Assembly (NCBI GenBank): GCA_963705105.1
Contig: CAVPIW010000018.1
Coordinates: forward strand, 1-27,064
Length of the DNA stretch: 27,064 nucleotides
DNA from: an uncultured Nitrospiraceae bacterium
GTDB lineage: Bacteria; Nitrospirota; Thermodesulfovibrionia; Thermodesulfovibrionales; Dissulfurispiraceae
Reading direction: 5' to 3'
A program made the position numbers and the translations under genes. A model generated the notes under the pieces. The model was given only the letters and a program-made list of their open reading frames with translations, searched no databases and was not told where the DNA came from. Within the stretch, counting starts at the first letter, position 1. The number at the start of each line of letters is the position of its first letter. This document shows, in pieces, positions 3,010 to 23,026 of this stretch.

Positions 3010-3063
3010 GAAATACCTCTTTTGTCATTTACAAAAACTGTCAACGGCAAAAACAGCCCTTCA

Positions 3064-3289
3064 GCCACAGAGGTCACAGAGATCACAGAGATAAACTCAG
3101 ACAAGCTATTGACCCGGCAATTAAACGGATGAACCGCGCTGTGCTTTGTCATTCCGTCTTGACCGGGGCTTGCGGCAATGACAGTAGTATTGGTATTTAA
3201 TTGCCGGTTTAAATATGGGCTTTTCTCGGTGCCCTCCGAGCTCTCTGTGGCTAATATATCTGTTCTTTGCGCTCTTTGCGGCTTTGCGC
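3064..3289. repeat. Nested inverted-repeat mosaic in divergent intergenic region
   Basis: GCCACAGAG-GTCACAGAG-ATCACAGAG (3064-3090) is mirrored at 3225-3251. Perfect 12-bp IR CCGGCAATTAAA at 3114-3125/3196-3207. Central TGTCATT..AATGACA at 3147-3183. CTTTGCG x3 at 3265-3289. Confidence 0.8.
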
Positions 3290-3309
3290 AAAAAAAGCCG
3301 TCAGTCCTG

Positions 3310-3341
3310 TTCCTTTCACTGTCACTCACACTCACACTGTC
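3310..3341 (-). repeat. CAGTGT/GAGTGT hexamer tract ending in CAGTGAAAGGAA
   Basis: Reverse complement reads ACAGTGTGAGTGTGAGTGACAGTGAAAGGAA, matching the units at 10585-10725. Confidence 0.8.
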
Positions 3342-3435
3342 TCCGTGTTGCTTTAACCTGAAGAGCCTGATTATACTATATTTTCAGCCCTTTTCCAAGG
3401 GCCTCATCATCACAGAAAGAGGTGAAAGTAAAGAT

Positions 3436-5367: not shown

Positions 5368-5368
5368 G

Positions 5369-5581
5369 CCCTGTCGCTGCAATGGAAAGGCGGGACGAAG
5401 CGCCTCAAAGCCTCGCTGATAGCGAGAATGATCGTTTATTATTGGTGTATCGGGAATTCATCTTTGATGTCATCCGCCATCTGCCTGAAAGGGTCTGGAC
5501 GGGAAGGCAAAGGTTTCGCAGCACCGAGGCTTGTCGGCGCATACGCCCCGCCTTTCCGGATGTCCGATTGCAACAGTAAGG
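5369..5581 (+). mobile_element. Palindromic MITE-like element, copy 1 (type A, 213 bp)
   Basis: Left end CCCTGTCGCTGCAATGGAAAGGCGGGACGAAGCGCC; right end GGCGCATACGCCCCGCCTTTCCGGATGTCCGATTGCAACAGTAAGG; flanks TGAG/TGAA. Confidence 0.8.
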
Positions 5582-6909
5582 TGAAATTCTTTATCTCTAC
5601 TCTCGGGTGTCCGAAGAACACCGTCGACTCCCGTCATATGGGCGATGAACTGACGAGACAGGGGTTCATACCCGCGGAGGAGCAGGATGCCGACGTCATC
5701 CTTGTGAATACCTGCGGGTTCATCAGGGACGCCAAGGAGGAGTCGATCGGGGAGATCCTGAGGCTTGCAAAGCTGAGAGAGCAGGGGAAGCGGCTCGTTG
5801 TCTTCGGATGCCTCGCGGAGCGGTACCGCGAGGACCTGGAGCGGGAGATGCCCGAGATCGACGGCCTCTGGGGCGTCGGCGACACGGCTGGCATCCTGAG
5901 CTATCTGGACACCCTCAGGACAGAGGGGGAGGACCGTCATGACCGGTCAGGCCACCCCCTCACGCCGTCTCCGGCCGGATCTTACGCCTATCTGAAGGTT
6001 GCCGACGGCTGTGACAGGAAATGCACCTTCTGCGTGATCCCCTCCATCAGGGGCAGGTTCAGGAGCATCGACGCGGAGGCCCTTCTGGAGGAGGCAGGGG
6101 AACTGATTAAAGGAGGCGCGCGGGAGCTTGTTCTCGTGGCCCAGGACATCACGAGCTACGGCAGGGAGTTGAAGGGCTGGAACCTTGCATCCCTCCTCCG
6201 CGGCCTCGTGGCGCTGCCCGGTGATTTTTGGGTCCGTCTTCTCTATCTCTATCCGACGGCATTGGACGACGAGCTGCTGTCCCTCATCGCCACGGAAGAG
6301 AAGATCGTCAAGTATCTCGACATCCCGCTCCAGCATTCCGAGGACCGGCTCCTGCGGCTTATGGGACGAAGGGGGACGAAGAAGGAGTATCTGAAGATCC
6401 TGAGGAAGATCAGGAAGGCCATTCCCGGTGTGACTCTCCGGACGACCTTCATCGTGGGGTTCCCGACGGAGACGGAGGAGGAGTTCAACGGACTCGTGGA
6501 CTTCATCGAGGAGGTGAGGTTCGACCGGCTCGGCGTCTTTGCATTCTCAAAGGAGGAGGGAACGCCGTCGGCGCTGTTGAAAGGACAGGTGCCCGACAGG
6601 GTGAAGAAGCGGAGGCTCGACGAGATCATGCGGCGCCAGGCCCTCATCTCTGCCGGGTTGAATGCGGAGCTTGTGGGCAAGCGTTTCAGGGCCGTCATCG
6701 ACGAGGTCGGCGGCGGCGTCGCCATCGGCCGTCTCCCCTCGCAGGCGCCGGAGATCGACGGGGTGGTGATCATAAAAACAGTCGATGATCGGCAACCGGC
6801 TGTCGGCGACATCGTGACCGTCGGGATTACCGGGGCTCACGATTACGATGTCGAGGCGGTGATCGTCGCACCTGTCTCGCAATCATGTCCTATCCTCGTG
6901 CCAGGGTAG
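5581..6909 (+). CDS. rimO: Ribosomal protein S12 methylthiotransferase RimO
   Basis: LGCPKNTVDS and NTCGFI N-terminal motifs, radical SAM motif CDRKCTFC, and a C-terminal TRAM region with QAPEIDG. Start placed at GTG 5581 because the upstream extension is the repeat element. Confidence 0.95.
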   Translation: MKFFISTLGCPKNTVDSRHMGDELTRQGFIPAEEQDADVILVNTCGFIRDAKEESIGEILRLAKLREQGKRLVVFGCLAERYREDLEREMPEIDGLWGVGDTAGILSYLDTLRTEGEDRHDRSGHPLTPSPAGSYAYLKVADGCDRKCTFCVIPSIRGRFRSIDAEALLEEAGELIKGGARELVLVAQDITSYGRELKGWNLASLLRGLVALPGDFWVRLLYLYPTALDDELLSLIATEEKIVKYLDIPLQHSEDRLLRLMGRRGTKKEYLKILRKIRKAIPGVTLRTTFIVGFPTETEEEFNGLVDFIEEVRFDRLGVFAFSKEEGTPSALLKGQVPDRVKKRRLDEIMRRQALISAGLNAELVGKRFRAVIDEVGGGVAIGRLPSQAPEIDGVVIIKTVDDRQPAVGDIVTVGITGAHDYDVEAVIVAPVSQSCPILVPG

Positions 6910-7114
6910 CTTTCATGAAAAGGCGGGACGAAATGCCTCAAGCCTTGCTGATAGCGAGCATGATTATTTGAAATTGGGCATCCGGGATTCATTCCTTTAT
7001 TTCATCAACGGCGGGCCTGATATATTCCTCATGGGAAGACAAAGGTTTCGCAGCACCAGGGCTTCTCGGCATCATCGCCCCGCCTTTCCGGATGTCTTGT
7101 TGCAGCGATCAAGG
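6901..7114 (+). mobile_element. Palindromic MITE-like element, copy 2 (type A, ~214 bp)
   Basis: TGAAAAGGCGGGACGAAATGCC...GGCATCATCGCCCCGCCTTTCCGGATGTCTTGTTGCAGCGATCAAGG; colinear with copy 1. The outer left end is degenerate. Confidence 0.78.
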
Positions 7115-7161
7115 TCATTCCGGGCATCAGTGGCAGCACGTGGCAACGAACTGGGAGAAAC

Positions 7162-8004
7162 ATGAAGAAATTTCCCTTTTTGCACATCATCCTTTTCTGC
7201 GCCACCTTCCTGACGACCCTCGCGGCAGGGGCGCTCCATATGGGGATCGACATCCTGAAGCAGCCGGAAAGGATCATCGAGGGGTTCCCCTTCGCCGGGA
7301 CCCTCATGTGCATCCTCCTTTTCCACGAATTCTCCCACTATATCGCGTCGAAGATGCATCACATCACGGCGACGCTTCCCTATTTCATCCCTGCACCTCC
7401 TTATCCATTCATCATCGGCACCTTCGGCGCCTTCATCAAGATGAAATCCCCCATTGTGACGAGAAAGGCCCTCGTCGACATCGGCGCCTCGGGACCGATT
7501 GCGGGGTTCATCATTTCCATCATCGCCTGCCTGGCCGGCCTCAGCATGTCGGAGACAAGGCTGCCCCAGGCGGAGAAAGGGCTGATCTTAGGAGATTCGC
7601 TGCTCTTCTCCTTTCTCTCACAAATCGTGCTCGGTGTGACGCCTGATCAGCACGACATCCTCCTGCACCCCGTCGCCTTTGCAGGCTGGATCGGTCTCTT
7701 TGTCACCTCCCTGAACCTCATCCCCGTGGGACAGCTCGACGGAGGGCATATAGCCTTCGCGTTGCTTGGTGAGAGGCACAGGCAGCTTTCCCTTGTGCTC
7801 GTCTTCGTCCTCGCCTTCATGGGCATCTTCTTCTGGGAGGGGTGGATCCTCTGGGCCGTGCTTCTTGTCGTCCTCGGGATCCGCCATCCGCCCGTCATCC
7901 ACTGGGAGATTCCCCTTGACTCAAGACGGCGTTTTGTCGGGTTCCTGTCCCTGGTCATATTCGTCATCACCTTCATCCCCTCACCGTTCCGGCTCGTCCT
8001 GTGA
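7162..8004 (+). CDS. Site-2 protease family (M50) membrane metalloprotease
   Basis: HEFSH zinc motif, DIGASGP, NLIPVGQLDGGHI and multiple TM segments. Confidence 0.92.
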   Translation: MKKFPFLHIILFCATFLTTLAAGALHMGIDILKQPERIIEGFPFAGTLMCILLFHEFSHYIASKMHHITATLPYFIPAPPYPFIIGTFGAFIKMKSPIVTRKALVDIGASGPIAGFIISIIACLAGLSMSETRLPQAEKGLILGDSLLFSFLSQIVLGVTPDQHDILLHPVAFAGWIGLFVTSLNLIPVGQLDGGHIAFALLGERHRQLSLVLVFVLAFMGIFFWEGWILWAVLLVVLGIRHPPVIHWEIPLDSRRRFVGFLSLVIFVITFIPSPFRLVL

Positions 8005-8834
8005 AAGCGTCCGTCATATCGAGCCCGTCCAATCCTCTTGTCAAGGAGATCCTGAAGATCAAAGCGGGGAAAAAGACCGGTCAGGAGGGACGATGCATCA
8101 TCGAAGGTCCCCATCTGATCGAGATGGCCCTCTCGTCACAAGCTGCCATCGAGAGGGTCCTGTTCACCGCCGAATTCCTTGCCCGCCAGGACGGCCGCAG
8201 GTTGCTGAGGTCCCTCATGGGGAAGGTGCCCGCCGGTGGCATCATCGAGATGTCCGGTTCTGTCATCGACCGTCTCAGCGATACGGAGACGCCCCAGGGC
8301 ATTCTGGCAGTGGTGGTGTTCGGCGCCACGGCACCGGAAGACCTAATTATCGGTGAATCTCCCCTCGTGGTCATCTGTGACGGCATCCAGGACCCCGGCA
8401 ACCTCGGGTCGCTCATCAGGGTGTCTGACGCAGCAGGTGCGAACGCCGTCTTCATCCTCCCCGGGACATGCAATCCTTACCTCCCCAAAGTCATCAGGTC
8501 GACGGCAGGGAGCATCTTTCACATCCCCCTCGTCCCTATCGGTCCGGAGGCATGCGTGGATTTTCTGAGAACACATCATATCCCGCTTGCCATCGCCGAC
8601 GTGCGCGGAGCGGTCTCCCTGTTTGACGCGGACCTCACGGGCCCGCTCGCCCTCGCCTTCGGGAGCGAAGCGAGGGGCGCCGGCAGGGTGCTGAGAGAGA
8701 AGGCCGATGTGTTGCTGAAAATCCCCATCGTGGGGAAGGCTGAGAGCCTCAATGTCGCCATGGCGGCATCAATCTGCCTCTACGAAGCTGTCAGGCAGAG
8801 AACAGCCCCCCGCTGCAAGCCCGGCCGGAAGTGA
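8001..8834 (+). CDS. TrmH/SpoU family RNA 2'-O-methyltransferase
   Basis: Motifs IQDPGNLGSLIR, GSEARG and ESLNVAMAASI. GTGA overlap with the upstream gene. Confidence 0.93.
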   Translation: MKASVISSPSNPLVKEILKIKAGKKTGQEGRCIIEGPHLIEMALSSQAAIERVLFTAEFLARQDGRRLLRSLMGKVPAGGIIEMSGSVIDRLSDTETPQGILAVVVFGATAPEDLIIGESPLVVICDGIQDPGNLGSLIRVSDAAGANAVFILPGTCNPYLPKVIRSTAGSIFHIPLVPIGPEACVDFLRTHHIPLAIADVRGAVSLFDADLTGPLALAFGSEARGAGRVLREKADVLLKIPIVGKAESLNVAMAASICLYEAVRQRTAPRCKPGRK

Positions 8835-8851
8835 CCTTGTTTTTGCATGAA

Positions 8852-8919
8852 CCTTTCAGCTGCGTGAAAAGGCGGGGCGAATGCCCCGCCTGTCCCGGAA
8901 GTGTATTGCAACGATAAGG
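8852..8919 (+). mobile_element. Minimal (68 bp) copy 3 of the palindromic element, ends only
   Basis: CCTTTCAGCTGCGTGAAAAGGCGGGGC-GAAT-GCCCCGCCTGTCCCGGAAGTGTATTGCAACGATAAGG. Confidence 0.8.
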
Positions 8920-9068
8920 TTATTTTGGACACGAGTGAATCCATTTTTTTGTTGACGGACCCCATATCGCGTCGTATACTTTTTTTAGGGATGCCGTCTG
9001 AATCATTCGGCAGACAACGGGGGGGATACACGACGAGAGAGATGTGAAGGAGCGCGGGGATTCCGTTT

Positions 9069-9827
9069 ATGGGTATATCCGCAAAATCACGGGAGCAGTA
9101 CCGGATACTCGTCATCGATGACGATGCGGCCGACTATCTTAGCGCCCTCGGGACGATCAGGAACTGCATGGTGCTCCATCTGCCCGACCGGCTGAGGGCC
9201 TGCGAGTTTTTCTTCCACAACCATGTGGACCTCGTCATTCTTGACCATGGAACAGGTCAGGACTGCACGAAACTCCTGCAATTCCTCAAGTCAGTGAGAC
9301 CGTCCATACCCGTCGTCACCGTCACGGCCTGCGGTTCCGAGAGCCTTGCCGTGTCGGTATTCAGGAACGGCGCCCGTGATTATTTCAAGAAGCCCCTCGA
9401 AATGCCATCCTTCATGGTCTCTGTCGGGGACGCCCTGGGCATACGGACGATATTGAAAAGGGCCGACTCGGAGCGTTCCAGGGATGGTCTTTTCCGCGCC
9501 GTCGGATATATCAATGATCATTATGACACGCAGCTGAAGCTTTGCCAGGTTGCCCGCGAGGCGGGAATGAGCGTGTCCTGCTTTGAGCGGCTCTTCAAGG
9601 TCAAGATGGGCATGACGTTCACCCGATACGCGAATCAACTTCGCATATCGAAAGCCCTTGCCATGCTGAAGGAGAGCGACCTTGCCATCAGTGACATCGC
9701 TTTTGCCTGCGGATTCACCAACCAGTTCCATTTTGCGAGGACCTTCAGGAAGATCACGAAGTCGTCGCCGAGTATCGTCCGGAGACATCAAAACGGCCAG
9801 GTGAGAGAAAAGAGACAAAGCTCCTGA
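9069..9827 (+). CDS. Response regulator, REC domain plus AraC-type HTH
   Basis: REC motifs ILVIDDD, VILD and GARDYFKKP; AraC motifs ISDIAFACGFTNQFHFARTFRK. Confidence 0.88.
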   Translation: MGISAKSREQYRILVIDDDAADYLSALGTIRNCMVLHLPDRLRACEFFFHNHVDLVILDHGTGQDCTKLLQFLKSVRPSIPVVTVTACGSESLAVSVFRNGARDYFKKPLEMPSFMVSVGDALGIRTILKRADSERSRDGLFRAVGYINDHYDTQLKLCQVAREAGMSVSCFERLFKVKMGMTFTRYANQLRISKALAMLKESDLAISDIAFACGFTNQFHFARTFRKITKSSPSIVRRHQNGQVREKRQSS

Positions 9828-9853
9828 CGCCCGTCCGGCTTTCCTCGTCTAAA

Positions 9854-10047
9854 CCTTATCGTTGCAATACACCCCCGGGAAAGGCGGGGCGTATGCGCCG
9901 AAAACCTTGCTGCGGCGACACCTGTATCGAGACTGAAGAGGAGGCATAAGCCAATGTCAGGAGAATTGGGCATCCTTTCCGACACTGACACTCACACTGA
10001 CACTGTTTTCAGAGTGCTTCGCCCCGCCTTTCTATGCAGCTACAAAG
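9854..10047 (-). mobile_element. Palindromic MITE-like element, copy 4 (type B, 194 bp, inverted)
   Basis: CCTTATCGTTGCAATACACCCCCGGGAAAGGCGGGGCG...CGCCCCGCCTTTCTATGCAGCTACAAAG; perfect TAAA/TAAA flanks; contains a GACACT/CACACT hexamer tract. Confidence 0.85.
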
Positions 10048-10074
10048 TAAAGAAAATCCCCCCTCTGTCGATAT
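10048..10074 (+). promoter_or_regulatory. Putative sigma28 (FliA) promoter of cheW
   Basis: TAAA-N15-GTCGATAT versus consensus TAAA-N15-GCCGATAA, upstream of a chemotaxis gene. Confidence 0.7.
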
Positions 10075-10129
10075 GAATGTAACATCTCTTGTCATGGAAA
10101 TACGGTGTAAATCATAGAAGGAGAACAGC

Positions 10130-10576
10130 GTGAAGGCGACGTCCGGACAGGAAGTACTGCAGTTGGTGACATTTAAGCTGGGTGATGAGGAGTACGCAGT
10201 CGATATCCTGAAGGTTCAGGAGATCAACCGGATGGTGCACATTACCGCCGTTCCGAATGCCGACCGTTCCCTTGAAGGCGTCATCAACCTCAGAGGCAGG
10301 GTCATCCCCGTCACAAATCTTCGGAAGAAGTTCGGGCTTGATTCGAAGGAACTCGATGGCCATTCACGCATCATGGTCGTCGATGTCGGTACCACCATCG
10401 GTCTCATCGTCGATTCCGTGTCGGAAGTGCTCAGGCTCCCCTCAGATACGGTCGAACCGCCGCCGCACATCGCCGGAAACGGCAGCACCGACTATGTAAT
10501 GGGCATCGGCAAGCTCGAAGACCGGCTGCTCATCCTTCTCGACATTGAAAAGCTCATGGGTAAGGGGAAGGAATAG
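10130..10576 (+). CDS. cheW: Chemotaxis coupling protein CheW
   Basis: Motifs LVTFKLGDEEYAVDILKVQEI, GVINLRGRVIPV and GLIVDSVSEV; SD AAGGAG. Confidence 0.96.
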   Translation: MKATSGQEVLQLVTFKLGDEEYAVDILKVQEINRMVHITAVPNADRSLEGVINLRGRVIPVTNLRKKFGLDSKELDGHSRIMVVDVGTTIGLIVDSVSEVLRLPSDTVEPPPHIAGNGSTDYVMGIGKLEDRLLILLDIEKLMGKGKE

Positions 10577-10584
10577 GTGCAAAA

Positions 10585-10725
10585 GCAGTGTGAGTGTGAG
10601 TGCGAGTGTCAGTTTCAGTGTCAGTGAAAGGAATAATAGCAGTGTGAGTGCGCGTGTGAGTGCGCGTGTCAGTGTCAGTGAAAGGAATATGTCGGGGTGT
10701 GAGTGGCAGTGGCAGTGAAAGAAAT
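10585..10725 (+). repeat. Three-unit tandem array of hexamer tracts, each ending in CAGTGAAAG(G/A)AAT
   Basis: GCAGTGTGAGTG...TCAGTGAAAGGAATA twice plus a shorter third unit. Confidence 0.85.
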
Positions 10726-10730
10726 GTTTC

Positions 10731-10751
10731 GGGCCCTTCGGGGAAGGGCCC
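10731..10751. terminator. GC-rich hairpin between convergent cheW and M48 genes
   Basis: GGGCCCTTC-GGG-GAAGGGCCC perfect 9-bp stem; weak U-rich tail on the minus strand. Confidence 0.6.
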
Positions 10752-10770
10752 CCACAATATATTGATCCTT

Positions 10771-12201
10771 TTACTGCCTTATTGCCGGGATGCGTGACGC
10801 CGCGTGTTTCCCCATCTCATTGTCCGGAGCGACCTTCACCTGCAGGGAATAGGCCTGATACGCCGAGGACTGATCACCCGTGTTCTCATAGCAGATCCCA
10901 AGGACGCCGAAGATTTCAGGATGCTTGGGGTTCGCTTCGGCGTACTTTTTCAGATGGGGAATCGCCTCCCGGTAGGCCTTTGTCCTGTAGCGGCTCATGC
11001 CGAGGAAATAATGGGATGACGCATCCTCGGGAAAGAGGGAGAGGGCCCGCTTCAAATTTTCGACGCCGGCGCCGTAATTGCCCCTGAAGTACTGCGATAT
11101 CCCCATGCCGCGCAATGCGGGCTGGTATGCGTTGTTGATGTTCAGCGCCGCCGTGAAAAAGCGATCCGCCGACGCGTAGTCCTTCTTTTTCAGCATGATA
11201 TAACCCTTCAGAGAAGGGAAGGGCGCCTCGGTCCGGTCCGCGGCGATGGCACCGTCGACGTGTCTCTCCGCTTCCGCCAGGCTGTTCTTCTGATAGGCCC
11301 TCGCCGCCGGGTCATAGTGATCACGGTACACCTTGCTTGTCTTCCTGATGTCGGCGGACATGCGCTGGAAGCGCTCTTTGCCTGTCCCGTCACCGACTCT
11401 GACGTAAGGCGGCACTGCAGCGATCATCTGGCGGATCTCGTCGATACGCACCGATGTCCTCGGATGCGTCGACAGGAGGTCCTCGAAGAACCCCCTTTCC
11501 TGGGGTTCCTTGCCGATGGAGCGGAGGTAATCCTGCGAGATTCTGTCGAGGTTCTGATGGGCCCTGACGGCATTCTCCGGATCGTATCCCAGCCTGGTCA
11601 TGTACTGGATACCGAGGCGATCGGCCTCCAGTTCATCGTCTCTCCCGTATTTCAGCAGCAGGAGACTGCTCCCGATGGCGCCTGCATTGAGCAGCGCGTC
11701 GGAGTAAGCCTGTCCGCCCAGGGCGGTCCCCGCCGCTGCAAGGCCGATCTGCTGGAGCATGCCGTATGACGTCTGACGGGCCGAATGGCGGGCGGCGACA
11801 TGGCCCATCTCGTGGCCCATGACGAAGGCGAACTCAGCCTCGTTGTCGAGACCGGCGAGAAGTCCCCGGGTCATGACGACGTGGCCTGGAATGGCCCAGG
11901 CATTGGGGACGGAGCTGTTCTGGACGGCGAAATCAACGGGGAGATTGGGCCGGTGCGAGACGCCGTGGATGTTCCGGACGACCCCTGTCAGATATGTCCG
12001 CAGTTGATCGTCCCTGTAAGGTCCTCCGCCCCCTTCCGCCCCCCAGAGTGCGTTGGGATAGAGGTCACGGCCCATCTTGATCTCCTGTTCCTCGGATACG
12101 AGCATCAGTTCGCTCTGCCCCGTCACGGGGTTGGTGGCGCAGCCCAGTAGCGACAAAGTCAGCAGACAGACGACAATGAGGGAAGACACGAGCTTTTTCA
12201 T
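10771..12201 (-). CDS. M48 family metalloprotease lipoprotein with C-terminal TPR repeats (BepA/LoiP-like)
   Basis: Lipobox LLGC; motifs PNAWAIPG, HEMGH, ELEADRLG and LSTHP; TPR-like helices. Confidence 0.92.
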   Translation of the reverse strand: MKKLVSSLIVVCLLTLSLLGCATNPVTGQSELMLVSEEQEIKMGRDLYPNALWGAEGGGGPYRDDQLRTYLTGVVRNIHGVSHRPNLPVDFAVQNSSVPNAWAIPGHVVMTRGLLAGLDNEAEFAFVMGHEMGHVAARHSARQTSYGMLQQIGLAAAGTALGGQAYSDALLNAGAIGSSLLLLKYGRDDELEADRLGIQYMTRLGYDPENAVRAHQNLDRISQDYLRSIGKEPQERGFFEDLLSTHPRTSVRIDEIRQMIAAVPPYVRVGDGTGKERFQRMSADIRKTSKVYRDHYDPAARAYQKNSLAEAERHVDGAIAADRTEAPFPSLKGYIMLKKKDYASADRFFTAALNINNAYQPALRGMGISQYFRGNYGAGVENLKRALSLFPEDASSHYFLGMSRYRTKAYREAIPHLKKYAEANPKHPEIFGVLGICYENTGDQSSAYQAYSLQVKVAPDNEMGKHAASRIPAIRQ

Positions 12202-13088
12202 GACGCGATATACCTCCCCGGGTTTTCCGTTATTGCTTTCATTATATCATCTTCAGGAAATCCCCGGTCGATCAGATTTCGGGCTGCCGCAACGACGCTG
12301 CAAGCCCCTCCGATGAGCGTTCCGTGTCTGTCGGCAAGGGCCTGTGGGCGCATGCCGCCGTCTTTCCTCGTCCCTGCGACGGAATCCGACACGATGATGA
12401 TCCTCCCGGGATCCTTGATCCTGAATATGAGATCGACAGTCATAGGATGGAGATGGAAGGGGTCTGCTATGATCTCCGCGTACACATCCCTGTTCATCAA
12501 TCCGAATCCCGCCAGGCCGGGCTCCCGGTGATGGAGAGTCCTCATGGCATTGAAGAGGTGGGTGACGCACCGGGCGCCGGCCCTGAAGCCGGCTTCAGCT
12601 TCCGCATAGGTCGCGTCGGAATGGCCCATGCTGACCCGGATCCCGCCGTCGGCAAGGCGGGTGATCAGCTTCGGCGCCCCGTCGAGTTCCGGAGCGAGTG
12701 TGACGATGCGCACTATATCCTCAAAGCCGTCGAGGAGCGCATTGAGATTGAATTCCGAGGGGTCGAGGAATGTGGCGGCATTGAGGGACCCGCATCGCGC
12801 GGGATTGAGAAAGGGTCCCTCGAGGTGGACGCCGATGATGCGGGCTGGTCCATGAGTGCCGGATGCAGGAGCACTCTCCCTATGAACCTGTTCCTGTTGA
12901 TCCATAGCCTCCCTGATTACCGCCATCTGCTGCCGCATCACCGGGACGGGGGAGGCATAGAGGGTGGGGATGATCTCGTCGACACCCAGGGCTCCGTGGA
13001 TCCTTGAGATCTCGAGGATGTGCTCCCCGAGGGTTGTTCTCGTGTCATACCCGCCGATCCCGTGGGTGTGGATGTCGATGATCTTCAT
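12198..13088 (-). CDS. nagA: N-acetylglucosamine-6-phosphate deacetylase (compact, 296 aa)
   Basis: Motifs IDIHTHG, HLEGPFLN, TLAPE, GHSDAT, THLFNAM and VSDS. Confidence 0.9.
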   Translation of the reverse strand: MKIIDIHTHGIGGYDTRTTLGEHILEISRIHGALGVDEIIPTLYASPVPVMRQQMAVIREAMDQQEQVHRESAPASGTHGPARIIGVHLEGPFLNPARCGSLNAATFLDPSEFNLNALLDGFEDIVRIVTLAPELDGAPKLITRLADGGIRVSMGHSDATYAEAEAGFRAGARCVTHLFNAMRTLHHREPGLAGFGLMNRDVYAEIIADPFHLHPMTVDLIFRIKDPGRIIIVSDSVAGTRKDGGMRPQALADRHGTLIGGACSVVAAARNLIDRGFPEDDIMKAITENPGRYIAS

Positions 13089-13124
13089 GGCCCGCAGATC
13101 TGCTATGATAGCATGGAAGGAACA

Positions 13125-13863
13125 ATGAATGAATCAACGCCATACCAGGAGAGGATCGACTTCGGGACATGGACGACCCGGGACCTCGATGTCCTTATCC
13201 GGCGGGCCTCGTCGCTGAAGGGCATTGCCCGGAAAGTCGCATTCATCTCGCGACAGTTTCTCGGTCTGCCCTATGGCGCATCGACACTTATCGGCGGCGA
13301 GGGAAGGCGGGAGGTATTCGTCATCAACCTCCGCCATGTGGACTGTTTCACCTTCCTGGATTATGTGGAGGCCTTGCGCCTGTCTGACACCGTTGTTGCG
13401 TTCAAGGACATGGTGAAGCGTGTTCGTTACCGGCAGGGGATCGTGTGCTACAAGGAGAGGAACCATTTTTTCACCGACTGGACCGCCGGGAACAATGTCA
13501 GGGATGTGACCGGGACTGTCGGCAGGGGTGCAACAAGGACATACGAAAAAAGACTCAATGATCGCGGAAACGGTTCCCTTCTTTCTGCCCGGCATTCCTG
13601 CCCGAAACCGGTTTATTTCCTGTATCCCCGCGGCTGGTCTCAGCGGGGAAGTCTGCCGGAGGCTGCATACGGGCGATTATGTCGGTGTCTGTTCCGAGTC
13701 GCCCGGTCTCGATGTTTCACACGTCGGGATAGTCGTCCGCCGCAGGGGGGCGCTCATGCTGAGACACGCCTCGTCATTGCCGGCCCACGGCATGGTCGTC
13801 GAACAGGGACTCATCGATTATATGGAAGGCAAACCGGGCATCATCGTCCTGCGGCCTGTCTAA
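13125..13863 (+). pseudogene. DUF1460 / N-acetylmuramoyl-L-alanine amidase-like protein, split by +1 frameshift (~13575-13580)
   Basis: Frame 1 has FLGLPY..VDCFTFLDYVEAL..RYRQG..RNHFFTDW. Frame 2 continues GDYVG..GLDVSHVGI..HASS..GIIVLRP. Could be a sequencing error. Confidence 0.75.
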
Positions 13864-13864
13864 A

Positions 13865-14060
13865 CCTCCGTTGCATGCAGAGGCGGAACGAAGTACCTTA
13901 AAGCCTTGCTGATACCGATGCTGTCTCCGGGAAGACAGATCTGGTTCAAAGCCTTTCCAATGCGATGATGAGACATGTCGAGGTGTTCAGCGCCTGTCGC
14001 CTGACGGGCCGTTGATATCAATAGACACGGCAAAGTGTGGTCCGGTGACGAATAATAAGG
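13865..14060 (+). mobile_element. Copy 5: degenerate left end of the element plus ~140-bp internal module; canonical right end absent
   Basis: CCTCCGTTGCATGCAGAGGCGGAACGAAGTACCTTAAAGCCTTGCTGATA follows the TAA stop, then a module shared with 19778-19915. Confidence 0.7.
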
Positions 14061-14077
14061 CGTGAAACTCCCACTGA

Positions 14078-15316: not shown

Positions 15317-15321
15317 TTCGG

Positions 15322-16075
15322 TCAGTTCCGAACTCTTCTGTGAATCTCGCCCGATGAGGTCACTCCCCAGACCGTCCCGTCGGCTGCGGCTGAGATATAA
15401 TCAATCCGTCCGTCCAGCTTTTTCCAGTCACTGCCTGCCCACCGGAAGACCTCCCCCATGTCGTTGACGCCCCAAATGTTTCCGGAACTGCCCACAGAGA
15501 CCTGTTTGAACGTTCCGGGTATTTTGGACCATGTCGTTCCTGTCCACCGGTAGACTTCATCTGTGAATTGTGACCCCCCAGACAGTGCCGTCCTGTGCAA
15601 CCGAAATATTTCTCAGGGTGCCGTTCATGAACTTCCAGTCGCTGCCTGTCCACCTGTACACTTCGTTGGCGACGGTCACTCCCCAAACGTTGCTGGAACT
15701 TCCCACGGCGACCTGCCTCAATGTTCCGGGCATTTTGGACCATGAGGAACCGGTCCAGCGAAACAATTCATTGTTCGGCGCGACTCCCCAGACGGTGCCG
15801 TCCGCCGCGGCGGATACATTGCTCATCTTCCCCTCGATTTTCTGCCAACCTCCCCCGGTCCACCGGTAGACTTCATTCGACGGGTTCGAGCCCCAGATCT
15901 GTTGACTGCTCCCGACGGACACCTGTTTCAGGATGCCCTCGACGCGCTGCCAAACGGCCTGATCATCAGGCGACACACTTGAAGAAGTCGTAATGCATCC
16001 AGTGGATCCGAGCGTGACGGCGAGAGCAAGCATCACGAGACATAACCGCATTGTCCGGTACAGCAATCCGTTCAT
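15322..16075 (-). pseudogene. Tectonin-repeat beta-propeller lipoprotein (6 x 35-aa repeats), split by +1 frameshift (~15565-15572)
   Basis: Repeats W..I.G.L..VSV....VWGV....EVYRWTG continue across ORFs 15557-16075 and 15322-15600. Signal peptide ends in STGC. Confidence 0.78.
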
Positions 16076-16268
16076 AATGTTCCCTCCTTGTGAATAAATT
16101 TTACGGCGGAATGCACCTCAAAATGATATCACAGAAGACCACCGGTGTCTATAATGGTGCTTGTCGCAGCACGAAAAGACGCGAGGAAGTGTCAGTGAAA
16201 GGAGTACTTCATTTATATTCATCTAAACAATGGATTCGGGACTGCACTCGATGGCCGGCAGTTCAGGT

Positions 16269-18803
16269 TTATTCGAAGCTGATGAATCGCTTCGGGTCCA
16301 CCTTTTGCGCCACCCGGGACGGGATGATGCCGGCGACGAGTATCGTCACGAACAGGAAAGCCGTCACGAGGGAAAGAAAAAGGACGGGCACCCTGAAGGT
16401 TATCTCCCATCCGAAGGAAATCTTGTTGATTACGTGGATGAAAATGATGCTCAGGATAGGGCCCATGGTCAGGCCGAGCACGATGCCGCCGAGACCGATG
16501 ATCCCCGCTGTGATGGTGAGCGTCGCTCTGATCTGTCGCCACGATCCCCCGAGGTAGCGGATGATGCTGATGTCCCGTTTCTTTTCGAGGACGAGGGCGA
16601 GAAGGATGTTGATCACCCCGATGACGGAGACGAGGATCGCGATGAGCTCGATCGCATAGGTGATCGCGAAGCTCTTGTTGAAAATGCTCATGATTGTGTT
16701 GCGGAGATCCCCGTTGTTCATGATAGTCAGGGCATAGCCGGCAGGGAGCCGCTGCTTCAGCGTCCCGATGAACGAGGCGGCGTCGGCCCCCTCCCGAAGA
16801 TAGACGCTGATCTGTGTCGCGTCATCGAGACCCCAGTATTCCTTGAGCCAGCGTCTGTCCATGAAGATGAATCCCGACGTGGCCGCATAGTTCATGAAGC
16901 TGTGGCTGACCGTGAAGGTCTTTTTCCCTTTCGGTGTCATGAGTTCTATCCTGTCGCCCGGCTGAAGGCCCTGTTTCAGCCTCAGGAAGTCCGAAACGGC
17001 GACTTTCCCTTCGTCCCTCAGCGCCCGGAGCTCTTCCGGGCGAATGCGCGACCCGAAGCGGGTTTCGAGATACCGGCCGTAGAGTTCAGTGTTTCCAAAG
17101 GCTACGGTCACCGGCGACCCGAGGAACTCGGACTGCAACGCCCGGTATCGGTCGATCCCCCCGATGTCAGGAAGGCCCTCGATCGTCCTGATCACATCCT
17201 CCGACAGGGGGAAAAAGCAGTAATTCGAGACGCAGGAGGCGGGTTTGATGTAGACGTCTGCGGAGACGTTTCTGTCTATCCACTCTTTGAGGGACGTCCT
17301 GAAGGAGAAGATGAGCGTCAGGAGGGCCACGATGAGGGCGCTGCTGATGGCGACGCACATGAGGGCAACGGAAAAACGGTAGAGGCTGCCCCGGATATCG
17401 CCCAGGGCGATTCGGCCCGGCGACCTGAACATCCGCCCCGTCACCCTGCGCAGGAGCCTCAGCAAGACGAGCAGGAAGGAGGGCGATAGGAGAGTGAACC
17501 CGAGAATGATAAGAAGGATACCCGTATAGGCGAGGAAAGGAAAGGGGAAGGGCATGAAACGGTAATCCGCATAGGCCGCCGCCATTCCCGTGATGACCGA
17601 CAGGAGGCCGAGGGTGCTGAAAAGAACGAGGTATCTCCTGTACCGGCCTTCGAAGGACCCCTCCCTCAGGGTCTCGCCGGGATGGATTCTCGACGCCTCA
17701 ACGGATGGAAAGAGAGAGGCGATGAACGACACGGAAAGGCCGAGGACCAGTGCCGTCAGCCAGTCCTGAAATGTGAGGAGATAATCGGAGACGGCGACGT
17801 TACTGTACATGGAGGAGATGGTCCTCTCGACGGCGATGACGGAGAAGTACGCGAAGACCTGACCGAGGACGATCCCGGAGAGAGAGCCGACAGAGCCGAT
17901 GATGAGGCCCTGCAGGGTGAAGAGGATCATGATTGTTCTCCGGTCCGCGCCGAGTCCCCTCAGGATGCCGATTTCCGTCCTGCGCTTGACGACGGAGATG
18001 AAGATCGTATTGTAGAGCAGAAAAACCCCGACGAGGATGGAGATGAGACTGACGAACTGCAGGTTGTACTGAAAGGAGGAGAGGAGCGACTTCTGGTTCC
18101 TGATGAGCTCGGACTTCCTTTCGAGAACAAGGTCCGACGGCAGTATCCTCGAAATCTCCGCCGCCTGCCGCTCGTCGGCGATGAGATCGATTCTTGTGAG
18201 CTGTCCTGTCCTGCCGAAGAGTTCCTGAAAATTGCCGATGTCCATAATGAAGGAACGGGTTGAGAGGACGTCCCTGTCGAGAATGTCGGCGACGAGGAGG
18301 GAGTACTCACGGTCATACACGAGCACCTGCAGGGTGTCACCCCTGCGTACCGACGCGGCCGCGGCAAAGGACGCTGTGATGAGGACGGCGTTCTGATTTC
18401 TGTAAAAAGTCTCGATATCGGTCGCTTTGCGGGGTGTCGCGCCGATGAACCTGAGGGACTTGACCGTGTCGATCCCGCTGATCTCGATTGTTTCGTCCCG
18501 CGCCCGGACGTACCCCGTCGCTTTCATGACGGGGAAACAGGCGCCGGCCTTCTGCAGGACCAGGGGGTAAAGGGTCTCGTCGAAGTCGATTCCGGACAGG
18601 CTCAGGATCTCATGAGTCGCCGCCGGGTTGATCCCCCTGATTTCCGTCTCGAAAGCATTCATCGCCCTGTCCGAGGCGACCTTCACGCCCGTGAAAAGGC
18701 CGATGCCGAGGGCGACGCCGACAATGGAGAGGGCCGTGAGGAAGCGCTCCTCCCTGATCGTTCTGAGGATGATGAGGCGGAGGAGTTTGATCGTCCTGTT
18801 CAT
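16269..18803 (-). CDS. ABC transporter permease, double FtsX/MacB-type (AttF/G-like)
   Basis: 844 aa with two FtsX-type motifs (RRTEIGILRGLGA; KRDISIIRYLGG) and TM clusters. Confidence 0.9.
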   Translation of the reverse strand: MNRTIKLLRLIILRTIREERFLTALSIVGVALGIGLFTGVKVASDRAMNAFETEIRGINPAATHEILSLSGIDFDETLYPLVLQKAGACFPVMKATGYVRARDETIEISGIDTVKSLRFIGATPRKATDIETFYRNQNAVLITASFAAAASVRRGDTLQVLVYDREYSLLVADILDRDVLSTRSFIMDIGNFQELFGRTGQLTRIDLIADERQAAEISRILPSDLVLERKSELIRNQKSLLSSFQYNLQFVSLISILVGVFLLYNTIFISVVKRRTEIGILRGLGADRRTIMILFTLQGLIIGSVGSLSGIVLGQVFAYFSVIAVERTISSMYSNVAVSDYLLTFQDWLTALVLGLSVSFIASLFPSVEASRIHPGETLREGSFEGRYRRYLVLFSTLGLLSVITGMAAAYADYRFMPFPFPFLAYTGILLIILGFTLLSPSFLLVLLRLLRRVTGRMFRSPGRIALGDIRGSLYRFSVALMCVAISSALIVALLTLIFSFRTSLKEWIDRNVSADVYIKPASCVSNYCFFPLSEDVIRTIEGLPDIGGIDRYRALQSEFLGSPVTVAFGNTELYGRYLETRFGSRIRPEELRALRDEGKVAVSDFLRLKQGLQPGDRIELMTPKGKKTFTVSHSFMNYAATSGFIFMDRRWLKEYWGLDDATQISVYLREGADAASFIGTLKQRLPAGYALTIMNNGDLRNTIMSIFNKSFAITYAIELIAILVSVIGVINILLALVLEKKRDISIIRYLGGSWRQIRATLTITAGIIGLGGIVLGLTMGPILSIIFIHVINKISFGWEITFRVPVLFLSLVTAFLFVTILVAGIIPSRVAQKVDPKRFISFE

Positions 18804-18828
18804 GCCGGTATCGCAGCGATCATGTTCA

Positions 18829-19040
18829 CCTTCCCGTTGCGTGAAAAGGCGGGGCGAAGCGCCTCAAAGCCTTGCTGAAGGCGACGATGAGCATTGCCAG
18901 GTTCGTGTTTCAGGATTCCACTCTTTGTGTAATCGACCATTGGCTTGAAAAGGGATCTTCCGCGACGGTTGTGGTGTCGCCGCATCAAGGTTTTCGGCGC
19001 ATACACCCCGCCTTCCCGGATGGCATATGCGACGATAAGG
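18829..19040 (+). mobile_element. Palindromic MITE-like element, copy 6 (type A, 212 bp)
   Basis: CCTTCCCGTTGCGTGAAAAGGCGGGGCGAAGCGCCTCAAAGCCTTGCTG...CAAGGTTTTCGGCGCATACACCCCGCCTTCCCGG..GCGACGATAAGG; perfect TTCA/TTCA flanks. Confidence 0.85.
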
Positions 19041-19041
19041 T

Positions 19042-19686
19042 TCATTCCGCTATGCTGCCGTCCCTGATACGGACGATCCGCCCGGCGTATGCGGCGATGT
19101 GCTGCTCGTGGGTGACGAGAACGAGGGTCTTTCCCGACTCCGCTGTGACGCCGCAGATGAGTTTCATGATCGATTCGCCGGTCCGGCTGTCGAGGCTCCC
19201 TGTCGGTTCGTCGGCAAGAATGATAGCCGGGTCATGGATGAGGGCACGCACGATGGCGACGCGCTGCTGCTCCCCGCCGGACAGCTGATAGGGATAGGAG
19301 GAGGCCTTTTCCCTGAGCCCGACGCGTCCGAGGAAGTCGGCGGCCCGCCGCTCGTCGTCGATGCCGTTCAGCAGGAGGGGCAAATGGACATTCTCCAGGA
19401 CGGTGATGTTCGGCAGGAGGTTGAAGAACTGGAAGATGAAGCCGATCCTCTTCCTCCGGTGGAGCGTGAGCTGCTCATCGGTGTACCGCGTGATGTCGTC
19501 GCCGCCGATGACGATATGCCCGCTGTCGGGCCTGTCCATGCCGCCGATGAGGTTCAGCAGCGTCGATTTGCCCGACCCCGAACTCCCCATGACGGCGACG
19601 AACTCTCCCGATCCGATCGTGAGGGTGACGTCCCTGAGGACAGGGGTGTCGCCGAAATGCCTGTTGATTCCTTCAAGGAGAATCAT
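19042..19686 (-). CDS. ABC transporter ATP-binding protein (LolD/MacB-like)
   Basis: Motifs GSSGSGKST, LSGGEQQRVAI, ILADEPTG and VTH. Confidence 0.95.
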   Translation of the reverse strand: MILLEGINRHFGDTPVLRDVTLTIGSGEFVAVMGSSGSGKSTLLNLIGGMDRPDSGHIVIGGDDITRYTDEQLTLHRRKRIGFIFQFFNLLPNITVLENVHLPLLLNGIDDERRAADFLGRVGLREKASSYPYQLSGGEQQRVAIVRALIHDPAIILADEPTGSLDSRTGESIMKLICGVTAESGKTLVLVTHEQHIAAYAGRIVRIRDGSIAE

Positions 19687-19692
19687 CGTTTA

Positions 19693-20053
19693 CCGCGCAG
19701 TTGCATGAAAAGGCGGGACAAAACGCTCTGAAAACAGTGTCAGTGACAGTGTGAGTGTCAGTGTCGGTGTCACTACCGCTGCTTCCGGGAGGGCAGATAC
19801 GGTTCAAAGCCTTTCCAATGCGATGATGAGACTTTTCCAGGTGTTCAGTGCCCGTTACCTGACGGGCACTTGGTATCAACTGACACGGCAAAGGGTGGCC
19901 TGGTGATGAATAAGGTATCTTAGCGGAAAGGCTTTTCACCACATCAGCCTTCCCGTCAGTCCTTTTGTCGTCCGGTCCCATCCGTTGTCTCCTGTCTGAT
20001 GTTTCTCGGCGCTTTCGCCCCGCCTTTCCCGGGAGTGTATTGCAACGATAAGG
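19693..20053 (+). mobile_element. Palindromic MITE-like element, copy 7 (composite, 361 bp)
   Basis: Left end, hexamer tract, ~138-bp module shared with copy 5, unique spacer, then right end CGCCCCGCCTTTCCCGGGAGTGTATTGCAACGATAAGG; flanks TTTA/TTCA. Confidence 0.82.
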
Positions 20054-20054
20054 T

Positions 20055-21111
20055 TCAGTATCCCGTCAGCTCGGCATAGGCCCTGCCCGTCGCGTTTCCC
20101 TCGACTGAGCATGTCCCTTCCCAATAATAATTAAGGGTCGAATGGGCGGCGACGCATTCCTGGTCTTCCAGGGACGGGATGACGATCACGTCGATACCCG
20201 CGGAAGGGATGGCGATCCGCCATCGCGAGGGATAACGGGCCCTGGTTTTTTTCGATGTATAGTGACCGAGCACGGTGAGGACGACGTCGTCGCGGGAGAG
20301 CTGCCGGGCACTGCCGTCGCGTTCGACGATTGTACCCGATGAGAAGGGGTCGATCGTTCCGTCGCTCCTGCGAAGGCGGTAGATCATGATGTCCCGTCCG
20401 TCGTCGAGCTGGATGGCGAACCAGTCCCAACCCCTCACCTCTTTTTCCAGGTCCCTCGTCGGAGAGCTCGCGGTCGAACCAGCTTGACCCTGTCACGCGG
20501 AAGACCTTGTCCCGGTATCGAAGGGTCCCTGTCGTCATAAGCCGCGTAAGGGAGAAATACAGAGAGGCGGACAGGGGGGATTCCCGGGATTTGCGGGAAT
20601 ACCCGTTGTTTCCGTGGAGCACGACCTTCTTTTCGGGAACGAGGAGGAAATCGATGGCCTTCTCGTCGTCTGCGGCCCTGATGCGTATGGTGTCTCCGGA
20701 CCACTGCAGTTGATTTCGTTCGGTCCATACGAGGAGGTCGCCGTGTTCCGTCCCCGAACTCGCGAAGGCCCCCCTGTCCGCAACGTCGCTGAAGGAAAAT
20801 CTCTTTCCCGCGACGTCGGTGAGGGCGAAATGGGATATATAGATATTGTTCAAACCGAAGCGGGAACGGTAGGGTCTTTTCTGGACGCCGACAACGAAAA
20901 AGGTGAGCTCGTAACCGAACAATCTCCCCTGGTCGTCGCGGAGATGGCCGGTGAAGTACCACCACTGGACTTTGTAGTCATCCCGGTAGTGCATGTCACC
21001 GGGAAAGGCGACGGACTTGGAGGGGGTGACATCTGCGAATTCCTCTGCCGATACCGGGACGGCGATCGCGCAGAGGATCAGAGCCAGAGTGATGAGGTGA
21101 AGTCCGACCAT
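20055..21111 (-). pseudogene. Secreted lipocalin-like / CrtC-AttH family protein, split by +1 frameshift (~20440-20460)
   Basis: Frame 1 has FPGDMHYR..QWWYFTGHL..FGYELTFF..YFSLTRL..WFDRE. Frame 2 has GWDWFAIQLDDG..YPSRWRI..YWEG..GRAYAELTGY. Confidence 0.78.
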
Positions 21112-21163
21112 GATCTCATCATCATGAGTCAGGGGCGGGACAATTTGCAAATCCGGCGCCGCG

Positions 21164-21751
21164 CTACCCGATCCAGACCGTTCTCTTGAAGTCTTTCAGG
21201 CCTTCGACAATGTGGTTCGTCGTTCCCCGGTAGCCGACCCTGAGGCTCGATTCGAGGTCATAGTGTTTCAGGCAGGTGCCGCAGGAGAAGATTTCAACGC
21301 CCTTTCCCTCGATGCTCTTCAGGATGGGGATCATCTCCCCGTCCGTCGTCGTGAGCTTCACGCCGGCATTGAGAAAAAAGATGGTGTGCGGCATCTCACC
21401 CGTCACGAGCATGGTTTCAAAAAAGGCCTTCATGAGGACCCTGCCGAGGGCTTCCTCTTTTCCCATGGTGTCGGAGCCGACGATACAGAAGAGGTCTTTT
21501 TCTTTGATCGCTTCTGCGGGAGATTCAGCCGGTTCGCAGACGTAGCCCTTCATGAGCTTCACCCGCCAGTGACCGTTCTCCCGGACCTCTTCAGAGGAGA
21601 GCCCGCTCTTCCGGGCGAACCTCATGAGGTTTCTCAACGATGCCTCGTTGTCGATGAGGATATCCACCGATCCCTCATCGATTTTCGATATGGCCTCTTC
21701 AGCCATGATGACAGGCTTGGGACATCCGAGGCCCCGCGCGTCGATAAACAT
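21164..21751 (-). CDS. yedF: Sulfurtransferase-like selenium metabolism protein YedF (TusA + DsrE domains)
   Basis: IDARGLGCPKPVI N-terminus, FFLNAGVKL and SCGTCL. Start moved to ATG 21751 with GGGAGG SD. Confidence 0.85.
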   Translation of the reverse strand: MFIDARGLGCPKPVIMAEEAISKIDEGSVDILIDNEASLRNLMRFARKSGLSSEEVRENGHWRVKLMKGYVCEPAESPAEAIKEKDLFCIVGSDTMGKEEALGRVLMKAFFETMLVTGEMPHTIFFLNAGVKLTTTDGEMIPILKSIEGKGVEIFSCGTCLKHYDLESSLRVGYRGTTNHIVEGLKDFKRTVWIG

Positions 21752-21858
21752 AATGCTTCCCTCCCGATGTTTCTGTTTAACAATACCTTGGGAAGGACAG
21801 GAAATACCAATAGCTTTTATCGATAAATTCTTCTGTATTGATAGGAGAACCTTGAAGT

Positions 21859-22764
21859 TCATTCCCTCCAGGAAGCGATCACATCTCTGAGGGCCTTGTA
21901 GATGTCCGGATGGGAGAACGGGAATCCCTCGGCAAGGAGCACGCCGGGAATAACACGCTGCCCGTTCAGGACGGCCTTCGCAAATTCACCCAGGGCGATC
22001 CTCGCGGCGAAACCCGGAACGGTCAGGAAGGCGGGCACTTTGAGCGCCTCGGCAAGGGCCTTTGAGAACTCGGCATTTCTGACTGGATTGGGTGATGTTA
22101 TGTTGACCGGTCCAGAGACGTGGCGCCTGTCAATGAGAAACAGAAAGGAGTTTACAAGGTCGTCGATGTGGACCCAGGAGACCCACTGTTTTCCCGAACC
22201 GACGGGTCCGCCGAGAAACCGCTTGAAGACAGGGATGAGGGACCCGAGGAGACCCCCTTTTTCGCCGAGAACGAGCCCGAACCGGGTGATGACCACCCTC
22301 GCACCGCGGCCGGCCGCGCTCATCGCCTCCTGTTCCCAGTCCCTCGCGAGGAGTCCGAGGAAATCGCTTCCGCTCGGCGCGTTTTCACGGAGTTCCTCAT
22401 CGCCGTGAAACCCGTAATAGCCGATGGCCGAAGCATTGAAGAGAGTCGTGCCGGCCTTGTCCGGGATCGCGTCGACGACGTTCCTCGTCGTGAATATCCT
22501 GCTGTCACGGAGGTCTTTTTTGACCTCCGGATTCCAGCGGCGTGAAATGGACGATCCGGCAAGGTTGATGACCCATTCCGCACCGGCCAGTTTCTCCTGC
22601 CAGGGCCCGGGCTGCACGGGATCGCCCTCGATCATCTCCGCCCCGGGGATATCACGGCCCCTCCTGGACCTCGTGAGAACCATGACGGCATGTCCCTCTT
22701 TCACAAGCCTCCGAACAAGCCTGGTCCCGACAAAACCCGTCCCGCCGGTCACGAATACTTTCAT
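21859..22764 (-). CDS. TIGR01777 family NAD-dependent epimerase/oxidoreductase
   Basis: Motifs VTGGTGFVG, INLAG, SAIGYYG, GGPVGSGKQWVSWVHIDD and GQRVIP. Confidence 0.92.
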   Translation of the reverse strand: MKVFVTGGTGFVGTRLVRRLVKEGHAVMVLTRSRRGRDIPGAEMIEGDPVQPGPWQEKLAGAEWVINLAGSSISRRWNPEVKKDLRDSRIFTTRNVVDAIPDKAGTTLFNASAIGYYGFHGDEELRENAPSGSDFLGLLARDWEQEAMSAAGRGARVVITRFGLVLGEKGGLLGSLIPVFKRFLGGPVGSGKQWVSWVHIDDLVNSFLFLIDRRHVSGPVNITSPNPVRNAEFSKALAEALKVPAFLTVPGFAARIALGEFAKAVLNGQRVIPGVLLAEGFPFSHPDIYKALRDVIASWRE

Positions 22765-22830
22765 GGAGACCTCCGTTGCAAGTTCTTTCTTCCATTATAA
22801 ACCCAAATAGAGTATATCCAAGAAGATAAC

Positions 22831-23026
22831 CCTCGTAGTTACGTAAAAAGGCGGGGCGAAGCGCTCTGGAAAACATTGTCAGTGATAGTGTGAGTGTCAG
22901 CAAAAGCTTCATTATTTTCAGACATTGACCCGAAAAGCTGCCTTTTGTGACGGTTAATGTGGTCGCCGCATCAAGGTTTTCGGCGCATACACCCCGCCTT
23001 TCCGGAAATCCTATTGCAACAAGAAG
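22831..23026 (+). mobile_element. Palindromic MITE-like element, copy 8 (type B, 196 bp)
   Basis: AAAAAGGCGGGGCGAAGCGCTCTGGAAAAC, hexamer tract, then CAAGGTTTTCGGCGCATACACCCCGCCTTTCCGG..TATTGCAACAAGAAG; flanks TAAC/TGAC. Confidence 0.82.

Follow-up and report, generated by a model that had tools for sequence, protein, structure and literature searches.

Which kind of element forms the short palindromic repeats that separate the genes in a stretch of 27,064 nucleotides from an uncultured Nitrospiraceae bacterium, and which enzyme brought them there? This stretch, in the following "the window," had been described from its letters alone as the site of eight copies of a MITE/REPIN-like family. 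The repeats are almost certainly MITEs (miniature inverted-repeat transposable elements). They are flanked by duplications of 4 bp, both of their ends are shared with a single clade of insertion sequences (IS) of the IS1380 family, and the sequence comparisons indicate that a transposase of this clade very probably cut and pasted them in trans.

Copies in the source genome and in the window

The source genome assembly (G000) comprises 4.23 Mb and is 99% complete. Profiles of the two ends matched it 677 times (left) and 601 times (right) at E < 1e-3, with 0 and 0 matches in the reversed genome. After resolution of overlaps at E < 0.1, the left ends numbered 710 and the right ends 636, and 521 left-right pairs could be formed. 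The paired copies shorter than 600 bp add up to 118 kb, and all family-like sequence, including stand-alone inner modules, to 168 kb or 4.0% of the genome in 666 end-bearing blocks. The expectation of hundreds of copies per genome was therefore borne out, and the family is not confined to the window. Termini were anchored for 395 pairs, the 391 short ones of which entered the statistics. Their modal length was 211 to 213 bp, with subfamilies near 195, 275 to 290, and 340 to 390 bp. Those long end pairs that were inspected enclosed ordinary genes or unrelated IS and no cognate transposase. A nifD-like nitrogenase gene is located between two MITE ends on contig C5.

Profile and end comparisons agree on terminal inverted repeats, and the ends read CC-n5-GTTGCA. 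Of 243 copies, 158 have an inner repeat with an offset of 10 nt and another 71 one with an offset of 9 nt. The asymmetric spacer had been given as about 2 nt on the left and about 10 nt on the right; between GTTGCA and AAAGGCGGG it actually measures 3 nt and 13 nt, respectively. The copies are intergenic as proposed: with genes predicted by a simple in-house caller (82.5% coding), only 3 of the 391 copies were enclosed by a predicted gene with a margin of at least 60 bp on each side. Another 46 overlapped predicted open reading frames (ORFs) by more than half, and at least some of these ORFs are the element's own. Being short, multicopy, and without a transposase, the family is a non-autonomous mobile element, as the preliminary description had supposed.

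All eight sites reported for the window hold element sequence, seven of them with both ends:

5369..5581, plus strand: full-length MITE copy, 213 bp, at the overlap of the htpG stop and the rimO start; flanks TGAG / TGAA
6901..7114, plus strand: full-length copy, 214 bp; left end decayed, duplication lost, overlaps the rimO stop
8852..8919, plus strand: internally deleted copy, 68 bp; both ends and one perfect hairpin
9854..10047, minus strand (inverted): copy of the CAGTGT-tract subfamily, 194 bp; TAAA duplication perfect
13865..14057, plus strand: right-truncated copy without a right end; left end and part of a nested inner module
18829..19040, plus strand: full-length copy, 212 bp, between two ABC-transporter genes; TTCA duplication perfect
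19693..20053, plus strand: compound copy, 361 bp, with a nested inner module of about 170 bp that has its own inverted repeat; flanks TTTA / TTCA
22831..23026, plus strand: copy, 196 bp, in the divergent spacer upstream of flagellin; both ends decayed

The two-ended copies span 68 to 361 bp (n = 7), and their neighbors are the ordinary genes htpG, rimO, cheW, ampG, and those for an ABC transporter and flagellin. The high density noted earlier is real but not representative, for the window is the densest contig, with 26 pairs per 100 kb compared to about 12 on the large contigs.

The nested inner module of about 170 bp, which has its own inverted repeat, is found at 19778-19955 and at 13920-14055. 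It occurs in a long class of 49 copies and is similar to the interior of the family in another genome, G004.

Duplication of the target and empty sites

A 4-bp target duplication had not been part of the preliminary description. Of the window sites, 9854 and 18829 retain a perfect duplication, 5369 and 19693 show a single mismatch, and at the others the duplication has decayed. Across the anchored copies, flank identity extended over exactly 4 bp for 146 of 391, while shuffled flanks gave a mean of 16.2 and a maximum of 25. Duplications of 2 and 3 bp were not enriched and those of 5 bp marginally (7 versus 1.3). Among the copies with the best-kept ends, the 4-bp duplication was perfect in 34 of 46. 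The target is T-N-N-A, and where both flanks agreed with this motif, the middle bases were the same in 121 of 157 copies, with 20.3 expected. Because T-N-N-A often contains a stop codon, an insertion would duplicate the stop and leave the gene intact; the upstream stop codon was inside the target 4-mer for 45 of the 391 copies. At G000:C12:295538 and C6:761221, the left end is 6 bp short by slippage in a short direct repeat, and the duplication is still perfect.

Two of the window copies have empty alleles in public metagenomes, each shorter by exactly the element plus 4 bp. A contig of run X1, which differs from the window by 6 letters in 2,229, joins position 5367 to 5593 with 8 letters between them and is thus 217 bp shorter (213 + 4 bp). 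This empty allele restores the GTGA overlap of the htpG stop and the rimO start. Runs X3, X4, X5, and X7, from four studies, join 9828 to 10050 with 23 letters between them and are 198 bp shorter (194 + 4 bp). Run X2 has element sequence at both the 5369 and the 9854 sites; in total, 6 of 24 listed metagenome runs were compared. Within G000, the joined flanks of 45 copies match elsewhere, many of these matches being self-overlaps. Several gap-free empty paralogues represent clean insertions into other copies or into other small repeats, and nested insertions were seen.

The IS1380-family partner

Related elements were searched for by scanning a genome collection with a pattern of the core ends, since the G000-specific pattern matched only 2 of 401 genomes of the phylum. 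In one scan, three of 22 matches were real family members, and related MITEs were found in two further assemblies, G409 (422 end matches) and G410 (389 end matches). Assembly G409, listed as Thermodesulfovibrio sp., contains the element L064, which is 1,531 bp long and has MITE-type ends, a TTAA/TTAA duplication, and a frame of 485 codons. The encoded protein reached 234 bits with the IS1380 model NF033539 (cutoff, 180) and 149.6 bits (E = 1e-43) with PF13701. A long copy with ends that bracket a transposase, the search for which had been recommended, was therefore found in a relative and not in G000 itself. The left consensus of the IS, CCTTGCAGTTGCAT, is that of the MITE; at the right end, CCCTAACGTTGCA of the IS corresponds to CCTTATCGTTGCA of the MITE, and the end profiles of both match side for side, left to left and right to right.

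Relatives of the L064 transposase at E ≤ 1e-20 occur in 30 of 301 genomes of the class and, with at least 56% identity, in 13. At the loci with 58 to 100% identity, a MITE-type end was located beside the gene in 11 of 13 cases, the other two being fragments. The 17 loci with 21 to 27% identity possess other ends where ends were found, with only loose unpaired motif matches nearby. In a midpoint-rooted tree of 29 proteins (rows shorter than 330 amino acids and L139 left out), the eight full-length proteins of the clade separate on a long branch with 100/100 support. The IS of this clade are 1,520 to 1,541 bp long. In G555, the ends of the four complete IS copies are identical and each of the four has a perfect 4-bp duplication, and the duplication was perfect in 3/5 of the two-ended partner elements, one of which is also in the G555 set. 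The T-N-N-A duplication of 4 bp is common to MITE and IS.

The host of L064 is inferred to belong to the class Thermodesulfovibrionia, as does G000, from the listing of G409 and an identical IS locus in G249. G249 and G409 may be one and the same assembly, and so may G453 and G410. A metagenome scan for L064 yielded one identical and one partial copy. Plasmids gave two chance matches, and their best transposase matches were 21 to 26% identical. Viral contigs gave 0 and 42 pattern matches, and neither the MITE profile nor the transposase matched any of the 42. No relative with a solved structure was found by sequence.

Similarity between MITE and IS ends with the termini. Profiles of the subterminal DNA of the IS reached a best E of 0.5 on the MITEs, and the whole IS gave one 25-bp match in the G000 genome (E = 0.035). 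The MITE is a type II element because it is without homology to the IS beyond the ends; a type I MITE, a deletion derivative of the IS, was rejected since the interior is not homologous to the IS. At loci in G525 (L162, L167, L179) and in G558, a different MITE of 232 to 237 bp has the same ends and a REP-like insert. It could not be aligned by eye to the 213-bp lineage and is likely to have arisen independently from this IS clade.

Shared ends, their sidedness, and the shared target make it very likely that the IS1380-family clade moved the MITE. The transposase would recognize the outer 13 to 17 bp of the ends, synapse two ends about 213 bp apart, and insert the element with a 4-bp stagger at T-N-N-A, while selection would purge insertions within genes. 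The interior does not stem from the IS; it represents a separate old lineage with homologues throughout the class. The G000 bacterium would then have lost its helper, leaving copies that now recombine with one another.

Several observations weigh against this assignment. No cognate transposase is present in the 99% complete assembly of G000: a PF13701 profile search gave no match, tblastn reached a best E of 1.0, NF033539 produced only weak cross-matches to other IS, and long end pairs, unpaired ends, and contig ends of this genome contained no helper transposase. From about 14 bp inward, the G000 ends no longer follow those of the IS. Among the nine genomes with at least 20 exact end matches, six are without a match to the clade at E ≤ 1e-20, most of these genomes being fragmented. 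Perfect duplications are retained in just 37% of all copies. Finally, a few bases adjoining the site are different in the empty alleles. These differences mark them as old alleles and not as a sign of recent insertion or precise excision, and an origin of the empty alleles by precise excision is unsupported.

A transposase resident in G000 might have moved the MITE instead. IS1634, IS4, IS701-like, IS1182, IS256, IS3, and ISL3 elements all reside there, several of them in multiple copies. Their ends differ from those of the MITE, however, and two of these elements have duplications of 5 and 7 bp as judged by eye, whereas the IS1380 clade fits both MITE ends, their sidedness, and the target; a resident enzyme is accordingly a very improbable source. 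The intact IS1380 element of G004 was also considered as a partner and rejected due to its different ends. The IS load of G000, with families assigned by eye, comprises about 18 IS256-type, 9 and 6 IS3-type, 5 IS1634-type, and 5 ISL3-type copies.

A REPIN/RAYT-type element, or an attC-like recombinase site with AAC-n6-GTT boxes at each end, is suggested by the long hairpin and by the fact that each end forms with its flank a short inverted pair around 6 bp. The outer box, however, consists of the target duplication and the terminal C, the middle bases are copied from side to side, and a DDE element possesses the same ends as the MITE. Duplications of 4 bp are not known from HUH or tyrosine recombinases. 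Since the duplication and the partner indicate a DDE transposase of the IS1380 family, this alternative is unsupported and hardly credible. The MITE part of the earlier MITE/REPIN-like assignment was thus confirmed, and its REPIN part was not, on the grounds of the duplication and the DDE partner and with RAYT genes not searched for.

Stranded or active in G000

Near-identical copies could indicate that the family is still moving in G000, with the cognate IS in an unassembled part, on a plasmid, or as an occasional visitor to the population. A neighbor of at least 98% identity exists for 59 of 465 copies and one of 100% for 8, clusters of 7 to 8 near-identical copies have unrelated flanks, and the presence of copies varies among close strains. 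Collapse of a helper in the assembly is less likely because 18 copies of another IS were resolved. In 24 near-identical pairs, which share members and have 1.7% interior divergence, left-end positions 3 to 7 differ at 26 of 120 sites, in contrast to 2 of 120 sites at the right end, and perfect duplications are retained in 30 of the 43 copies of these pairs. This pattern fits conversion of the interior at old sites, as does the finding that left and right modules occur in each of the four possible combinations. In G195, a young burst of MITEs, a set partly found with the left-end pattern, carries one left heptamer in 12 of 13 copies and perfect duplications in 10 of 13, so that left-end variation is absent there as well as from the IS copies of G555. 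For the same reason, a transposition mechanism that itself mutates the left end was rejected.

Recombination within the interior at old sites explains these data together, and current activity is therefore not demonstrated; recombination between copies accounts for the near-identical ones better than recent jumping does. The element is probably stranded and recombining in G000, and continued activity is the unlikelier state. Near-identical MITE copies thus need not imply recent jumping.

A class-wide lineage with a paired inner stem

At least 20 exact end matches were present in 9 of the 301 class genomes, and controls reached at most 2. Homologous copies of 204 to 218 bp from 11 genomes in at least two orders align end to end with a mean column identity of 59%; the alignment contained 18 hand-picked full-length copies, and other lengths up to about 260 bp also exist. 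The GTTGCA core of the terminal inverted repeat is nearly invariant. Three genomes (G000, G004, and G559) have the interior in the opposite orientation with respect to the outer 7 bp. The inner repeat is 9 to 12 nt out of register in most copies, the exceptions being G559 and two single copies. Common descent is sufficient by itself to account for the shared length and offset. A length fixed by a reading frame was rejected since lengths vary from 204 to 218 bp across families.

In helix 2 of the inner stem, both sides had changed in 10 of 11 pairs. Paired cells amounted to 92% in the alignment, a value reached in 0 of 500 shuffled trials, versus 80.5% after shuffling and 38 to 43% when the arms were slid; against this result counts that the control ignores relatedness, that the structure came from the same alignment, and that the sequences are not independent; relatedness and the use of one alignment inflate the pairing. 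The left and right arms within one family match at 12.5 of 14 positions compared to 9.6 between families. The inner inverted repeat appears to be kept as pairing and not as sequence. For this reason, a role as a hairpin in a transcript or single strand, or homogenization by arm-to-arm repair, is likely.

Covariation of the inner stem, together with folding z values of −2.0 to −8.5 for ten representatives and the 68-bp copy that is a single hairpin just 3' of a gene, may indicate a domesticated structured RNA or terminator-like regulator, the mobility of which would be incidental. Against such a function, copies between tandem genes have no preferred orientation (120 same, 100 opposite), convergent gaps are occupied as often as divergent ones (59 and 61), a terminator scan called one small sub-hairpin in one copy only, and copies are missing from close strains. 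The recommended comparison with Rfam revealed no match, with 0 hits of its covariance models at gathering score and 0 at E ≤ 0.1 on three loci. Domestication as an RNA is therefore improbable.

A wider interpretation of the mobile MITE is more speculative. It might be an ancient DNA parasite that persists across the class by borrowing a passing IS1380 clade that combines T-N-N-A targets with piggyBac-like chemistry, with the length of about 213 bp and the inner hairpin as selected parts of the substrate. This hairpin would be shifted out of register by one helical turn and maintained through its pairing instead of its sequence. Should this doubtful proposal be true, MITE interiors would be working structures and not decayed filler.

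Relation to known elements

Comparisons with cited papers refer to excerpts of these publications. Prokaryotic type II MITEs are described as non-coding elements of less than 500 bp with terminal inverted repeats and decaying target duplications, which are intergenic, form hairpins, occur nested, and resemble an IS only at their ends (PMC10969869). All of these traits are present here, as in Correia/CREE, RUP, ERIC, Chunjie of Geobacter uraniireducens, and QMITE, and the basic kind of element is therefore ordinary. The partner differs from those of known type II MITEs: the term IS1380 is absent from the excerpts of PMC10969869 and of the census PMC11602168. The copy number is at the top of the reported range, with 468 copies in the richest genome of the census, which used another method (PMC11602168), and 711 ERIC copies in Photorhabdus. 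A single homologous lineage spans at least two orders, while conservation at 95% identity was mainly genus limited in the census (PMC11602168).

Elements of the IS1380 family have CC termini and duplicate 4 to 5 bp, and the L064 clade agrees with both features. Like IS1247, ISEcp1, ISPme1, and ISPsp9, L064 passes NF033539 and PF13701, has a single frame, and possesses ends that begin with CC; its transposase is about 26% identical to that of ISEcp1. The IS of the clade, at 1,520 to 1,541 bp, are shorter than named IS1380 elements with 1,672 and 1,718 bp, and their duplication is 4 bp instead of the 5 bp of IS1247 and ISPsp9 (PMC3281130, PMC4133298). The non-autonomous IS1380 forms in the excerpts are one-ended transposable modules (PMC9330008) and not MITEs.

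Similarity to piggyBac comprises a 4-bp target with TTAA as the commonest form, CC ends, and an unequal layout of the left and right ends (PMC7351741), and IS1380 serves as the piggyBac outgroup (PMC13416829). Unlike in piggyBac, the target is T-N-N-A and not strictly TTAA, and the inner repeat, which is protein bound in piggyBac, is here restricted to the MITE and changes its sequence. The inner flank base agrees with the consensus more often than the outer one (25 versus 9, P = 0.009), a difference that a piggyBac-like hairpin intermediate with seamless excision might leave but that other causes explain as well.

REPINs are reportedly non-autonomous hairpin elements that persist in lineages over long times, and the MITE resembles them in both respects. 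They rely on a host-retained RAYT, whereas the helper here is a patchily distributed DDE IS, absent from the G000 assembly.

Full-text literature searches for IS1380 together with MITEs and for MITEs in Nitrospirota or Thermodesulfovibrio did not find such a family described; ISfinder was outside their scope, so that a registered relative may exist. The kind of element is known, but the family and the pairing of a MITE with IS1380 are apparently undescribed. A partner from the IS1380 family, a combination absent from the searched literature, would thereby be assigned to a prokaryotic MITE, and a compact testable system would result: an IS of 1.5 kb, a substrate of 213 bp, and a T-N-N-A target of 4 bp, within a bacterial family that serves as an outgroup of piggyBac. 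The cross-order alignment separates an outer core, likely read as sequence, from an inner stem kept as structure, which bears on the question of whether MITE interiors matter.

Other repeats and genes in the window

Directly 3' of the copy at 8852..8919, positions 8920-8937 form the end of a second inverted-repeat family of about 250 bp, with 32 motif matches in G000. Eight near-identical MITE copies are carried inside such elements of about 250 bp and share their flanks. Further small repeats cluster at 3010-3345 upstream of htpG, namely an inverted pair of the ACAGAG type, the palindrome GTCATTCC, which has 211 motif matches across G000, and a CACTGT tract. A stand-alone tandem array of the CAGTGT module, which is also found inside one MITE subfamily and has 111 loose matches in the genome, is located at 10581-10760 and followed by a REP-like palindrome.

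Two genes, at 13020-13863 and 20055-21150, are apparently split across two frames. The X1 and X2 contigs are one base short at 20460, and the break in the second gene may be strain specific or an assembly error. On the minus strand at 15322-15976, two adjacent short ORFs contain 105-bp repeats with WGV motifs, which appear beta-propeller or lectin-like by eye.

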